NCBI GenBank assembly: GCA_963716745.1
Contig: OY970320.1
Span: forward strand, 640,001 to 704,000
DNA length: 64,000 bases
Source: an uncultured Gemmatimonadaceae bacterium
GTDB taxonomy: Bacteria > Gemmatimonadota > Gemmatimonadetes > Gemmatimonadales > Gemmatimonadaceae
Reading direction: 5' to 3'
Numbering within the stretch: the stretch's first letter is position 1; each line of letters starts with the position of its first letter. The translations under genes were made by a program, and so were the position numbers. Positions 15,733-21,081 of the stretch are shown here, one piece after another. Under the pieces are notes generated by a model. That model was given only the letters and a program-made list of their open reading frames with translations. It searched no databases and was not told the DNA's origin.

Positions 15733-16785
<1,053 letters not shown>

Positions 16786-16803
16786 CTATTCGCGCCGGTC
16801 GCA

Positions 16804-17016
16804 TCACGCGACGGGGACCCCGCGCGGCGCGCGCTGGATCTTGCCGGCCGCGAGACAGCGGGTGCAGACCTTGATCTTGGTGATCTTGCCGTCGACGAGG
16901 ATGCGCGCGACCTGGAGGTTCGGCTTCCAGACCCGGCGCGTCCGGTTATTGGCGTGCGAGACGTTGTTCCCGAAGGTCACGCCCTTCTTGCACACGTAGC
17001 AACACTTGCTCTGCAT
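16804..17016 (-). CDS. rpmB: 50S ribosomal protein L28
   Basis: CYVC...[21 protein letters not shown]...KVCTRCL. Confidence 0.96.
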
Positions 17017-17019
17017 GGG

Positions 17020-17376
17020 TCAGCCCTCGATCAGCTCGATGCGCGCCATCTCGGCGCCGTCACCCTTGCGGTGACCGATCTTCAGGATGCGGGTGTAGCC
17101 GCCGGCGCGCGTCTTGAAGCGCGGGCCGATCTCGGTGAACAGCTTGTCGCCCAGGTCGCGCTGCTGCACATGACGGCCGGCGAGGCGGCGCGCATGCAGC
17201 GTGCCGGTCTTGGCCTTCGTGATCAGCTTCTCGACGAACGGACGGAGCTCCTTGGCCTTCGCCTCGGTGGTCTCGATCGCGCCGTGCTCGATGAGCGCGG
17301 ACGCGAGCCCGCGCATGAGCGCGAGCTTCTGTTCGCCGGTGCGGCGGAGCTGACGGCCTGCCTTCTGATGGCGCAT
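17020..17376 (-). CDS. rplQ: 50S ribosomal protein L17
   Basis: MRHQKAGRQL...IETTEAKAKELR...GGYTRILK...RKGDGAEMARIEL. Confidence 0.98.
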   Translation of the reverse strand: MRHQKAGRQLRRTGEQKLALMRGLASALIEHGAIETTEAKAKELRPFVEKLITKAKTGTLHARRLAGRHVQQRDLGDKLFTEIGPRFKTRAGGYTRILKIGHRKGDGAEMARIELIEG

Positions 17377-17382
17377 GGTGCT

Positions 17383-18448
17383 CTACTCCTCGTCGTCTGG
17401 TGCGGCGGCGGCGGCGCGGCTCGGCGGCGTGCCCCAATCGGTGACGCGCACGCCCTCGGCGCCTTCCTCGTACCGCATGCCGAAGTTCAATCCTTCACGC
17501 TCGAGGAGCGTCGCGATCTCCTGCAGCGACTTCTTCCCGAAATTCTTCACCTGCAGCATTCTGCGTCTCGGTCTGGCGCACGAGGTCGCCCAGCGTGCGG
17601 ATGTCCGAGTTCTTGAGCGAGTTCACCGAACGCACCGACAGCTCGAGCTCGTCGATCGGCGTCAGGAGCAGCGTCGCGAGACGGTGTCCGTCGCCCGAGT
17701 GGTCGCCCTCGACGCCGGCCACGCCCTGCGAGTGCGAACCGAAGTTCGCGAAGAACTGGAAGTGCGTCTGCGCCAGCGCGGCCGCGTAGCTCACGGCCTC
17801 TTCCGGCGTCAGCGTGCCGTTCGTCTCGACGGTGAGCGTGAGGCGGTCGTAGTCCGTCCGCTGGCCGACGCGGGTCTCGGCGACCGCGAAGTTCACGCGG
17901 CGCACCGGATTGTAGATCGCATCGATGCGCACGAGGTCGATCGGCAGGCCGCGGTCGGCGGGATGCTGGTCGCTCTCGAGGTAACCGCGCCCCTTGTTCA
18001 CGTAGAGCTCGATGTTCAGCTCGCGGTCATCCTGCAGCGTGAGGATGTGGTGCGAGGGATCGATGACCCGCGCCGCGCCGCTCTCCTCGATGTCGCGCGC
18101 CGTGACCGCGCCCGTGCCGTTCTTGCGGATCTTCAGCACCGTCTCGTCCACGTCGTCCGCGAGGACGAGCGTGAGCGTCTTCAGGTTGCCGATGATCTGG
18201 TGCACATCCTCGACGACGCCGGGGATGGTCTGGTGCTCGTGCAGCACGCCGTCGATGCGGAAGCCCCACACCGCCGAGCCGCGGAGCGACGAGAGCAGCA
18301 GGCGACGCATCGCGTTGCCGAGCGTGTGGCCGTAGCCGCGCTCCAGAGGCTGGACCCGGAATTCCGCGACGTTCGGACTGTCGTCCCGCTTCGTCGCCTC
18401 AACTACCTGCGGGCGAACCAGGCCCGTAAGATCGATCGCTTGCGCCAT
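17383..18448 (-). CDS. rpoA: RNA polymerase alpha subunit (1-nt insertion near 17560)
   Basis: PLERGYGHTLGNAMRRLLLSS, DAIYNPV, LELSVRSVNSLK. Removing one A restores ETQMLQVKNFGKKSLQEI and a stop at 17383. GAGGA RBS upstream of ATG 18448. Confidence 0.97.
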
Positions 18449-18464
18449 GCTTGGATTCCTCGAA

Positions 18465-18588
18465 TGGTCAGACCGGGAGAGCCCGGCCACGCTTCACCTC
18501 GCCTCTGATGCGCGGTGAACCCGTACGGGGATCAGAGCCCCGACCAGTGCAGCGGCACGCCGGAGCGCGCCGCACCAATGCAACCGGA
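18465..18588 (-). ncRNA. Candidate cis-regulatory structured RNA (kissing-loop) in the rpsD-rpoA spacer
   Basis: Hairpins CGGGG-CUCUGAU-CCCCG and UUCACCGCGC-AUCAGAG-GCGAGGUGAA have complementary loops. Further hairpins lie on both sides. Confidence 0.5.
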
Positions 18589-19221
18589 TTACTTGCTGTA
18601 CAACTCGACGATCAACTGCTCCTGCGCTGCGATCGGGATGTCCGTGCGGCTGGGCTTCTCGAGCATCTTGCCGCTGAACGTGTCCTTGTCCACGGCGATC
18701 CACGAGAGCGGCACGCCGCGTCCCGCCTGCTCCATCGCCTGGATCACGGACACCTGTTCGCGCGACGCCGGACGCACCCGCACTTCCTCGCCGGGACGCA
18801 CGAGATAGCTCGGGATGTCCACCTGCTTGCCCTTCACCTCAATGTGCCGGTGCCGGATGAGCTGGCGCGCGGCCTTGCGGCTCGCAGCGAATCCCATGCG
18901 GTAGACGATGTTGTCGAGGCGGCTCTCGAGCGCGCCGAGCAGGTTGTGCCCGGTGATGCCGGGGAGCTTGGACACGCGCACGAACGTGTTGCGGAACTGC
19001 AGTTCGCTCACGCCATACATGCGCTTCACCTTCTGCTTCTCACGCAGCTGCTTCGCGTACTCGCTCGCCTTGCGGCGGCGCGCGGTGCTCTGGCCGTGCT
19101 GGCCGGGCGCGTACGGACGGCGCTCGACCGGGCACTTCTCGGTGAAGCACTTGGTGCCCTTCAAGAAGAGCTTGGTGCCTTCGCGGCGGCACTGGCGGCA
19201 GCTGGGACCCGTATAGCGCAT
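18589..19221 (-). CDS. rpsD: 30S ribosomal protein S4
   Basis: MRYTGPSCRQCRREG...PGQHG...QLREKQK...LESRLDN...IVELYSK. Confidence 0.98.
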   Translation of the reverse strand: MRYTGPSCRQCRREGTKLFLKGTKCFTEKCPVERRPYAPGQHGQSTARRRKASEYAKQLREKQKVKRMYGVSELQFRNTFVRVSKLPGITGHNLLGALESRLDNIVYRMGFAASRKAARQLIRHRHIEVKGKQVDIPSYLVRPGEEVRVRPASREQVSVIQAMEQAGRGVPLSWIAVDKDTFSGKMLEKPSRTDIPIAAQEQLIVELYSK

Positions 19222-19224
19222 CGG

Positions 19225-19617
19225 TCAGACCCTCCGGCGCTTCGGCGGACGGCACCCGTTGTGCGGGATGGGCGTCACGTCACGGATCGACTTGATCTGC
19301 AGACCGGCGGCGGCGAGCGCCTGGATGGCGGACTCGCGGCCGCTGCCCGGGCCCTGCACGCGCACATGGAGGCGCTTCACGCCGAGGTCCTTCGCTTCCT
19401 TCGCGCACATCTCGGCGGCGACGGTCGCGGCGAACGGCGTGGACTTCTTGGAGCCCTTGAACTGCGCCTTGCCCGACGACGCCCACGCGACGGTATTGCC
19501 GTGCATGTCCGTGATCGTGATGAGCGTGTTGTTGAAGGTCGCGTTCACGTGCGCGATCCCTTCGGATTCGACGGCACGCTTCGCCTTCTTGGGAGCGCCG
19601 GGTTTTGCGGTTGCCAT
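19225..19617 (-). CDS. rpsK: 30S ribosomal protein S11
   Basis: ATFNNT...KKSTPFAA...GPGSGRE...[18 protein letters not shown]. Confidence 0.98.
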
Positions 19618-19674
19618 GCTGTGCGAGCCTCTAGATCGGTAGTCGGAGAAAGCGGAGAATGCGGAGCGCCGCGA

Positions 19675-20052
19675 TTACTTGGTGACCTTCTTCTTCCCGG
19701 CGATGGCGCGGCGCGGGCCCTTCTTAGTGCGGGCGTTCGTATGCGTGCGCTGGCCGCGGACGGGCAGACCCTTCCGGTGGCGGACGCCGCGATACGAACC
19801 GATGTCCATCAGTCGCTTGATGTTCATGGCGACTTCGGTGCGGAGCGCGCCTTCGACGCGCAGGTCCTTCTCGATCGCCTGGCGGAGGCGGTTCGTGTCG
19901 GCGTCGTTCAAGTCCTTCGCGCGGATATCGGGGCTGACCCCGGTGTCGGCGAGGATCTTGCGCGCGGTCGCGCGCCCAATGCCGAAGATGTACGTCAGGC
20001 CGATCTCGATGCGCTTCTCGCGCGGCAGATCGACTCCCGCAATGCGTGCCAT
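19675..20052 (-). CDS. rpsM: 30S ribosomal protein S13
   Basis: [10 protein letters not shown]...LTYIFGIG...[23 protein letters not shown]. Confidence 0.98.
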
Positions 20053-20055
20053 GGA

Positions 20056-20172
20056 TTAACCCTGCCGCTGCTTATGCTTTGGATTGCGCTTGCAGATGAT
20101 GCGAGTCACGCCGTTTCGCTTGACGACTTTGCAATGCTCGCAGATCGGCTTCACGCTGCTTCGAACTTTCAC
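20056..20172 (-). CDS. rpmJ: 50S ribosomal protein L36 (below the ORF-track size cutoff)
   Basis: Manual translation from GTG 20172: [38 protein letters not shown]. Confidence 0.97.
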
Positions 20173-20218
20173 AGGAACTCCGGTTTGGTGCCGAAACTGA
20201 AATCCGGTCAAGTCTCAC

Positions 20219-20247
20219 AGAATAACCAACTTAGAGTTCCAATGCAA
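20219..20247 (-). promoter_or_regulatory. Sigma70-type promoter of the rpmJ-alpha operon
   Basis: TTGCAT-17 nt-TATTCT on the minus strand in an AT-rich patch about 47 nt upstream of rpmJ. Confidence 0.7.
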
Positions 20248-20274
20248 GGGAGGCGCAGGAGGTCACCGCAGACC

Positions 20275-20389
20275 GCGGGGTTGGTACCGCAAGAGGCGCG
20301 TTAGCGTTGGCGTTGGGGATGACAATCACGACGCAAGCCACGGTTCCTAACGCCAACGCCACACACGCCCCCAGCGGTACCAGCCCCGC
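20275..20389. repeat. 115-bp imperfect palindrome (REP/REPIN-like) just after the pyrF stop
   Basis: GCGGGGTTGGTACCGC pairs with GCGGTACCAGCCCCGC; the inner GCGTTGGCGTTGGGGA pairs with TTCCTAACGCCAACGC. Confidence 0.8.
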
Positions 20390-20391
20390 CC

Positions 20392-21081
20392 TCAGCGGTT
20401 CAACTCACGCAGTATTTCCGTGAGTTCCGCACCTGGATCCGTCGCCTCGGTCACCGCCCGGCCGAGCACCAAATAACTCGCCCCCGCCGCCACCGCCGCG
20501 GCCGGTGTCACCACCCGCGCCTGGTCATGCGCGTCCCCGCCCGCCCGTCTGATCCCCGGCACCAGAATAGCCAGCTCGTCTCCGAACGCCGCCTTCACCG
20601 CCCCACACTCGGCGCCCGAGCACACCACCCCATGCGCGCCCGCCTCCGCGGCGATCCCCGCGAGTCTCAACACCTCGGCGCTCAGACTCGTGATCGAGCG
20701 CCCCCACGCCGCGCCGAGCGATGGCGCGTCGAGCGAGGTGAGCACCGTCACCGCGAGCACTTTGCAATGCGCGCCTGCCCCTTCGACGGCCGCCTCGATC
20801 ATCGCGCGGCCGCCCGACGCGTGCACCGTCACGAGCGCCGCGCCCGTCGCGGCCGCATTGCGCGCCGCGCCGCGTACGGTGTTCGGAATGTCATGCAGCT
20901 TGAGGTCCAGGAACACGTCGCGTCCTTCGTCGCGCATGGCGCGCACGACCGGCGGCCCTCCCGCGGTGAACAGCTCGAGTCCCACCTTCACGAAATCGCA
21001 CGCCGCGCCGAGGCGCGCGGTGAGCGCCGCCGCCCGCGCGAGATCGGGCACGTCGAGCGCGACGATCGCGCGCGGCTTCAC
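20392..21081 (-). CDS. pyrF: Orotidine-5'-phosphate decarboxylase
   Basis: GTG start overlapping the pyrD stop (GTGA). IVALD, KVGLELF, FLDLKLHDIPNTV, VTVLTS, VPGIR, DQARV, LGRAV. Confidence 0.95.
   Translation of the reverse strand: MKPRAIVALDVPDLARAAALTARLGAACDFVKVGLELFTAGGPPVVRAMRDEGRDVFLDLKLHDIPNTVRGAARNAAATGAALVTVHASGGRAMIEAAVEGAGAHCKVLAVTVLTSLDAPSLGAAWGRSITSLSAEVLRLAGIAAEAGAHGVVCSGAECGAVKAAFGDELAILVPGIRRAGGDAHDQARVVTPAAAVAAGASYLVLGRAVTEATDPGAELTEILRELNR

Follow-up and report, generated by a model that had tools for sequence, protein, structure and literature searches.

A family-wide kissing-loop RNA between rpsD and rpoA in Gemmatimonadaceae, a candidate translational operator of rpoA-rplQ-rpmB

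In Escherichia coli, ribosomal protein S4 represses the alpha operon through a translational operator that traps the 30S ribosomal subunit, and regulation of the alpha cistron is described as independent of S4, whose control it escapes by an unknown route (PMC10931766). That operator is a pseudoknotted messenger RNA (mRNA) structure adjoining the ribosome-binding site of rpsM, the operon's first cistron. How bacteria set the amount of alpha, whose gene lies amid a ribosomal protein operon, is poorly understood. Here, we describe a structured RNA element of about 82 nucleotides (nt) in the spacer between rpsD, which encodes S4, and rpoA, which encodes RNA polymerase alpha, in an uncultured Gemmatimonadaceae bacterium (GenBank assembly GCA_963716745.1, contig OY970320.1, positions 640,001 to 704,000; this stretch of 64,000 nt is hereafter the window, and positions are counted from its first letter). 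The element is conserved and covarying across the family, and we weigh its possible role in controlling rpoA together with rplQ (L17) and rpmB (L28).

A ribosomal protein leader typically occurs in a narrow range of lineages (Eckert and Weinberg 2020, PMC7247131). That survey places its S4 leader candidates, from Bacteroidia, Flavobacteria, Clostridia and Fusobacteriales, ahead of rpsD or rpsM, and its L17 candidate, from Actinobacteria and Proteobacteria, ahead of rplQ (PMC7247131). The present element resembles these candidates, whose presumed ligands are S4 or L17, in being lineage-restricted, supported by covariation and placed before genes of the same cluster; unlike it, none of them lies between rpsD and rpoA or comes from Gemmatimonadota, and the strings 'Gemmatimon' and 'kissing' are absent from the main paper, supplements apart (PMC7247131). 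With the E. coli S4 operator it shares the operon family (rpsM-rpsK-rpsD-rpoA-rplQ) and a pseudoknotted mRNA adjoining a ribosome-binding site. However, the E. coli structure stands at rpsM and belongs to Gammaproteobacteria, while the fold here is a four-way junction with a loop-loop helix of 7 base pairs (bp), situated between rpsD and rpoA. Nor is its position that of an L17 leader, as it lies upstream of rpoA, and the 6 nt between rpoA and rplQ leave no room for one.

The spacer measures 140 nt on the minus strand, from the rpsD end at 18589 to the rpoA ATG at 18448. Read as mRNA, its rpoA-proximal part forms a closing helix, P1, and three hairpins, A, B and C, and the 7-nt loops CUCUGAU of A and AUCAGAG of B are exact reverse complements that can pair as a kissing helix (Table 1). 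Hairpin B consists, in order, of B0 (ACG/CGU), a 2x1 internal loop, B1 (UUCACC/GGUGAA), a G-A mismatch, B2 (CGC/GCG) and the 7-nt loop. B0 is a 3-bp extension pairing ACG at 18524-18522 with CGU at 18491-18489, and it covaries among relatives: its first pair is A-U in 73 sequences, U-A in 4, G-C in 3 and G-U in 2, and its third is G-C in 81 and U-A in 1. U18546 can give P1 a fifth pair, with A18465 (UGGUC 18546-18542 with GACCA 18469-18465), and the loop of hairpin C varies in length among relatives. The hairpins, the closing pairs, a further hairpin upstream and the GAGGA before rpoA all lie where the first-pass annotation of the window, a reading of the bare sequence, had put them. That annotation had drawn hairpin A at 18542-18526 with a 5-bp stem; the position stands, but in relatives C18542 pairs with G18469 rather than G18526 and thus belongs to P1, leaving a conserved stem of 4 bp.

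Taken as a single sequence, the spacer offers modest evidence, and comparison across relatives is decisive. Its folding energy does not stand out on the mRNA strand (z = -1.6) or on the other (z = -1.3), and 84 of 20,000 dinucleotide shuffles contain a pair of hairpins whose stems have at least 3 bp and whose 7-nt loops are fully complementary. The loop duplex has a calculated energy of -7.6 kcal/mol, and four other natural loop pairs reach -9.0 to -12.0 kcal/mol, in each case for the loops alone.

To compare relatives, we aligned 16 family spacers with MAFFT (alignment A1), in which the core aligned readily, and built from A1 a covariance model, R1, that holds the nested helices only and leaves out the kiss. 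A model-based alignment, A4, then comprised 86 sequences, 85 of them distinct, with genomes flagged as unpublished excluded; the added sequences included 40 deliberately low-scoring matches, so as to avoid favouring consensus-like copies. The kissing helix is 100% paired in A1, where 6 of its 7 pairs change on both sides. Across the whole structure in A4, 97.8% of cells are paired, a figure that falls to 38-47% once the 3' partners are shifted by 1-3 columns; changes on both sides occur at 27 of 33 pairs, and the observed scores were reached by 0 of 500 shuffles. All helices (P1, A, B, C and the kiss) covary in the 85 distinct sequences. Since the kiss was not in the model used to fit A4, its pairing there is no fitting artefact.

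The two loops occur in 21 combinations, at least 13 of them distinct and perfectly complementary (for example CCCUAAC/GUUAGGG, CCCUGAC/GUCAGGG, CCUUCAC/GUGAAGG, CCGCGAC/GUCGCGG and CUCUACC/GGUAGAG), and the CUCUGAU/AUCAGAG of the window is a genus variant. By structural class this is a loop-loop (kissing) pseudoknot, the complementarity of its loops being kept by compensatory changes in the 16 sequences of A1 as in the 85 of A4. Exceptions are few. In alignment A2, L004 has a C-A mismatch and L002 a 1-nt deletion in loop A, both being assemblies of the same genus that also carry rpsD and rpoA frameshifts; in A4, loop B has 6 nt in two sequences, and the boundary between loop A and its stem is ambiguous in two. 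The first-pass annotation had proposed looking for covariation in the rpsD-rpoA spacers of relatives, above all for compensatory changes between the loops, and these are present, at 6 of the 7 kissing pairs; hairpin C and the closing helix, which it had joined to the set, likewise prove conserved and covarying.

These data bear directly on whether the spacer has any function as RNA. A DNA-level signal, an antisense transcript, a small open reading frame (ORF) or plain chance would sit comfortably with the unexceptional folding energy on either strand, but none of them accounts for compensatory changes that keep pairing in 27 of 33 pairs, and the independent MAFFT alignment A1 agrees with A4, which argues against an artefact of model fitting. 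G-U pairs are frequent (36 at one hairpin C pair, for example, and 8 U-G in hairpin B); read on the opposite strand, they would turn into C-A mismatches, which assigns the structure to the mRNA strand. Spacer lengths in the family range from 107 to 229 nt with no coding pattern. ARAGORN reports 0 transfer RNA (tRNA) or transfer-messenger RNA genes in 18350-18700, and a tRNA-like fold was set aside. We therefore find the absence of an RNA function hardly credible and regard the structure as real with near certainty.

Table 1. Features of the rpsD-rpoA spacer and its operon in the window
Feature	Position	Strand	Remarks
Whole element, ~82 nt, four-way junction with loop-loop pseudoknot	18465..18546	minus	model R1 94 bits; covariation in 85 distinct sequences
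P1 5' strand GGUC	18542..18545	minus	pairs with 18469-18466; 94.1% paired; 4/4 pairs change on both sides
P1 3' strand GACC	18466..18469	minus	ends 17 nt before the rpoA ATG
Hairpin A, stem GGGG/CCCC (4 bp), loop CUCUGAU 18537-18531	18527..18541	minus	stem 99.7% paired; 4/4 pairs change on both sides
Hairpin B (B0+B1+B2), loop AUCAGAG 18509-18503	18489..18524	minus	98.8% paired; 7/12 pairs change on both sides
Kissing helix, 7 bp, 18537-18531 with 18509-18503	18503..18537	minus	99.5% paired (85 sequences); 6/7 pairs change on both sides
Hairpin C GCCGGG[CUCU]CCCGGU	18472..18487	minus	94.8% paired; 6/6 pairs change on both sides
Shine-Dalgarno-like GAGGA of rpoA	18457..18461	minus	4 nt past the element end, A18465
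Upstream hairpin GCGGCGCGC[UCCG]GCGUGCCGC	18552..18573	minus	genus-specific; outside the conserved element
rpsD (S4)	18589..19221	minus	gene upstream of the spacer
rpoA (RNA polymerase alpha)	17383..18448	minus	ATG at 18448; frame break near 17560
rplQ (L17)	17020..17376	minus	6 nt after rpoA
rpmB (L28)	16804..17016	minus	3 nt after rplQ
Intrinsic-terminator-like hairpin with U run	16749..16777	minus	after rpmB; likely operon end

Conservation within the element is uneven. Little or no variation occurs in the CCGCGC...GCGRGG atop hairpin B or in the first kissing pair, a constancy that exceeds what pairing needs and points to sequence-specific recognition. Unpaired purines in the junction and internal loops are also conserved (R35, G36, G43, R57 and G64 in A4). 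Two architectures occur: most genomes have the full four-way junction, and a subgroup lacking P1 and C (L022, L198 and L194, for example) keeps only A, B0/B and the kiss, with the ribosome-binding site directly after.

Intramolecular loop-loop helices of 7 bp that many independent compensatory changes support are rare, and the kiss is one of them. In ColE1 RNA I/RNA II, a kissing complex with fully paired 7-nt loops is bound by Rop, the interaction being intermolecular and antisense; the L2-L3 contact of the lysine riboswitch is an intramolecular kiss, and riboswitch kisses lock multi-helix junctions and belong to metabolite aptamers. The element is like both in that its loops pair over their whole length into a quasi-continuous helix that a protein could recognise, but here the kiss links adjacent arms of a single junction, within a leader internal to the operon. 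Closer in setting is the mycobacterial rpsO leader, for which a 'kissing loops' form stabilised by the repressor protein, S15, and hindering ribosome loading has been proposed (PMC8470358). Both would thus be ribosomal protein leaders with a loop-loop interaction, yet the gene, lineage and fold differ: the mycobacterial kiss is predicted for one species and hides the Shine-Dalgarno (SD) sequence (PMC8470358), whereas the one described here is backed by covariation in 85 sequences and does not include the SD.

To map the distribution of the element, we queried 41 related genomes with DNA covering the end of rpsD, the spacer and the start of rpoA. Within the family Gemmatimonadaceae, a spacer of the length range given above is present in all 20 loci holding both genes (L006, from an unpublished genome, is counted here but its sequence was not used). 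In two sister families of the same order (f2 and f3) the element is absent from 10 of 10 loci; rpsD and rpoA overlap there by 4 nt in 8 loci and lie 5-7 nt apart in 2, an arrangement of overlapping stop and start codons that would couple rpoA directly to rpsD. R1 gives a strong match in 141 of 151 family genomes, one each, apart from a second match on another contig of G097, and in 105 of the 108 that are at least 90% complete. These counts include four genomes flagged as unpublished (G012, G054, G055 and G153), all matching, without which they become 137/147 and 103/106. Nine of the ten family genomes without a match also give none to an rpoA protein query, the region most likely being unassembled in them. 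The tenth, G047, has rpsD, a 130-nt spacer, rpoA, rplQ and rpmB, but its spacer (L191:1373-1502) is unrelated and lacks the element; it carries a GC-rich hairpin (CGUCGGGGCGCGCGCCCCGAGACG) that may be a replacement element.

Beyond these genomes, a sample of the whole phylum placed the element in 30 of 31 family genomes, and 119 genomes from 11 other families yielded one noise-level match (26 bits, expectation value E = 0.002); an equally weak second match falls inside a family genome. We also scanned the 19-mer core of hairpin B, a probe biased toward the commonest loop B sequences, over 185,579 species genomes, which returned at least 120 stretches, 80 of which were fetched. Among those fetched, all 66 labelled Gemmatimonadaceae, Gemmatimonadales, Gemmatimonadota, Gemmatimonadetes or Gemmatimonas match R1 fully, at 48.8 bits or more, as does one locus labelled 'uncultured bacterium' (likewise at least 48.8 bits). 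Occurrences under Streptomyces, Actinomadura, Myxococcales and other labels were rejected as chance copies: of the 13 fetched, 12 score 18-27 bits and one gives no match. The element is single-copy, always in the rpsD-rpoA spacer and specific to the family Gemmatimonadaceae.

Searches for known families leave it unassigned. Rfam 15 covariance searches (cmscan) of window positions 16500-21000 at E <= 10 gave three weak, unrelated matches, none in the spacer, and those of the loci of 18 diverse relatives at E <= 1 gave nothing on the element. The relatives' only matches were three weak ones to microRNA families (E 0.35-0.7; 22.5-27.7 bits against gathering thresholds of 78-97) in the variable spacer beside it. 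Thus no Rfam model matches here, including that of the E. coli S4 operator pseudoknot, which we take to be Alpha_RBS. The first-pass annotation had recognised no named family, and in this it was right. A full-text literature search, whose coverage excluded most subscription journals, found no description of the element. It is a new, family-wide structured RNA, absent from Rfam, and thus a ready addition to RNA family databases and a clean object for RNA structure work.

The position of the element relative to rpoA is nearly constant. From the P1 end to the rpoA start codon there are 11-25 nt, with a median of 19 (70 sequences), and where P1 and C are lacking (8 sequences) the B0 end stands 14-25 nt before it; alignment gaps caused another four sequences to be mis-sorted, and the start was not found by pattern in 4. 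As these distances are alike with and without P1 and C, the constant feature is the distance to the ribosome-binding site. Of 82 relatives, 64 have an SD-like tetramer in the interval from the structure to the rpoA start. In the other 18, a simple pattern finds none within 20 nt of the start, where the stretch is C/A-rich, and initiation there may rest on something besides SD pairing, possibly the structure itself.

A small-molecule riboswitch, responding for example to an alarmone or a nucleotide and setting rpoA-rplQ-rpmB translation by growth state, would explain why a compact pseudoknotted fold with conserved unpaired purines adjoins a ribosome-binding site, and given the Rfam result it would be a new class. 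However, we see no conserved alternative pairing that could act as an expression platform: there is no terminator-like site, the SD lies outside the conserved helices and is sequestered by no conserved strand, and the anti-SD-like stem strands covary freely. In addition, the subgroup that lost P1 and C yet keeps A, B and the kiss suits a protein site more than a ligand pocket in the junction, and it is rare for a riboswitch to be limited to a single family and a single gene. We consider this explanation distinctly unlikely.

On the minus strand the genes run rpmJ, rpsM, rpsK, rpsD, spacer, rpoA, rplQ, rpmB. The rpmJ-rpsM gap is 3 nt, and the element lies 1.5 kb downstream of the rpsM start. 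Scored for promoter-like and terminator-like sites, the spacer has none, and the first intrinsic terminator is reached only past rpmB, where a canonical 11-bp stem with a U run shows that the organism uses such terminators; the spacer hairpins are accordingly unlikely to be terminators. In contigs from metatranscriptome libraries of four studies, derived from close relatives with at least 88% likeness, the spacer is joined to its flanks. Contig X4 (18459-18711) spans the rpsD stop, X2 (18379-18550) the rpoA start, and X1 (18356-18609) the entire spacer, reaching just 20 nt into rpsD. These contigs are consistent with co-transcription with the flanking genes, as weak evidence. Two contigs from two studies stop at 18459; an RNA end at this position was rejected, since close relatives diverge exactly there and contigs cannot show ends.

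Between rpsD and the element the spacer is variable. The long hairpin at 18573-18552, which the first-pass annotation had counted with the set, is kept with compensatory changes only within the genus and so falls outside the conserved element; L009 and L010 have none. It was likewise rejected as a terminator, having no U run and no terminator-like site scored there. Among the 17 relatives whose upstream spacer is at least 15 nt long, 14 have unrelated stable hairpins (z <= -1.96) and 3 do not, and in two further relatives this part is only 4 and 9 nt. Short tandem or palindromic repeats occur in it, with GGCTATT-type units in L016 (whose upstream part is ~135 nt) and CTGTCTGA-type units in L008, which suggests that small repetitive elements were inserted between rpsD and the RNA element in these two.

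The variable upstream hairpins could protect a 3' end, and the element might process, stabilise or uncouple the transcript, separating the highly translated rpsM-rpsK-rpsD from rpoA-rplQ-rpmB by a ribonuclease site, by a protective 5' structure after cleavage or, least likely, by a self-cleaving ribozyme; this would give the halves of the transcript different lifetimes or translation rates. The element does stand in place of the rpsD stop/rpoA start overlap of the sister families, in a spacer with neither a promoter-like nor a terminator-like site. But uncoupling or protection needs neither invariant nucleotides nor a covarying 7-bp kiss, and a distance to the start codon that stays fixed speaks for translation initiation. 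L009 and L010 do without an upstream hairpin, the Rfam scans matched no known ribozyme family, and the RNA contigs cross the element unbroken, though contigs cannot exclude cleavage. A role of this kind we judge unlikely.

Instead, we favour a new protein-bound translational operator of rpoA-rplQ-rpmB, its ligand probably a ribosomal protein, and give this operator mechanism a probability of about 0.55. That the element keeps a constant relation to the ribosome-binding site suggests a protein acting in trans, which would recognise the kissing domain and hinder or trap the 30S subunit at rpoA, and the invariant recognition surface, a half-junction that is dispensable while A, B and the kiss stay, and tightly spaced downstream genes lead to the same reading. 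Here a trans-acting protein, most probably a ribosomal protein from the same transcript, would recognise the invariant top of hairpin B and the kissing helix; present in excess of free ribosomal RNA (rRNA), it would block or trap the 30S subunit at the rpoA start and lower rpoA translation. Across the 6-nt and 3-nt gene spacings, rplQ and rpmB translation would drop too, by translational coupling, through which ribosomal protein operators of this operon act in E. coli (PMC10931766). Like the ribosomal protein leaders described above, the element is a covarying structure adjoining the ribosome-binding site of a cistron that leads ribosomal protein genes. The first-pass annotation had suggested an internal cis-regulatory element controlling rpoA-rplQ-rpmB, a role that the single copy, the fixed spacer, the near-constant distance to the start and the tight genes would all fit.

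As to the ligand, L17 and S4 are both possible, each tentatively. L17 is encoded downstream, where the spacing leaves no place for a separate L17 leader; S4 classically regulates this operon, and for E. coli an additional S4 site ahead of rplQ has once been suggested (PMC10931766). L28 is a more doubtful candidate, suggested by rpmB being co-oriented 3-40 nt behind rplQ in 20 of 20 Gemmatimonadaceae loci (including the unpublished L006) and convergent with rplQ in 9 of 10 sister-family loci (in the tenth it was not seen). Another protein seems very unlikely. The inversion of rpmB coincides with the gain of the long rpsD-rpoA spacer (L017, L020 and L023-L029 versus L001-L022); a strict link between the element and rpmB orientation is weakened by G047, which has this rpmB arrangement and no element.

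Several points weigh against a protein-bound operator or against particular ligands. The support reaches as far as the structure, whereas the regulatory role and the ligand we infer. S4 is encoded upstream of the element, so its binding would not be classical autoregulation of its own cistron; the E. coli rpmB-rpmG operon is reported not to be feedback-regulated (PMC10931766), and essentially a single evolutionary event underlies the tie of the element to rpmB orientation. G047 keeps rpoA-rplQ-rpmB co-oriented without the element, which is thus dispensable or replaceable. The SD takes part in no conserved pairing, so control by sequestration is not indicated. Assembled contigs show neither strand nor ends, and DNA carry-over into them is possible. 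Resemblance to the rRNA site of the protein is frequent in ribosomal protein leaders, although not obligatory; the longest words that the element shares with the genome's own 16S and 23S rRNA, compared as primary sequence only, are 9 and 11 nt, lengths that shuffles reach in 46% and 8.5% of cases; mimicry at the sequence level was rejected, the words being within the shuffle range and the 11-nt 23S word sitting in a differently folded hairpin. Finally, with B0 formed, hairpin B would have about 14 layers against the 4 bp of hairpin A, so that a 7-bp kiss would require a sharp bend at the internal loops of B, or else B0 and the kiss would alternate.

If they do alternate, the element would be a conformational switch. 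This bears on a further proposal, a dedicated sensor that sets alpha synthesis independently of the upstream ribosomal proteins, either as a riboswitch of a new class, sensing a growth-state signal such as an alarmone or a nucleotide, or as an operator to which alpha or an intermediate of RNA polymerase assembly binds, in which the kiss and the B0 helix might be the two alternative switch states. We think such a sensor quite unlikely; were it true, this would be the first cis-acting RNA known to control rpoA. Whatever the ligand, this well-defined candidate operator sits exactly at the rpoA ribosome-binding site and is conserved throughout a family whose phylum is understudied and mostly uncultured; the sister families, in which rpoA appears to be coupled directly to rpsD, provide a natural comparison.

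Two further observations concern the surrounding genes. The rpoA frame of the window is broken near 17560 (17495-17565, minus strand: ...ACGCAGAATGCTGCAGGTGAAG...), and the conserved C-terminal domain (MLQVKNFGKKSLQEI...) runs on in another frame to 17383. The rpsD and rpoA matches of the same-genus assemblies L002-L004 are likewise split, and the break looks like an indel error of long-read assemblies, not a real pseudogene. Farther upstream, the 180-nt gap from a pyrD/pyrF-like ORF to rpmJ holds a long imperfect inverted repeat of ~96 nt (20284-20379, minus strand), whose sole Rfam match is a weak, meaningless microRNA; it may terminate the upstream gene or serve the rpmJ-rpsM operon as a leader.

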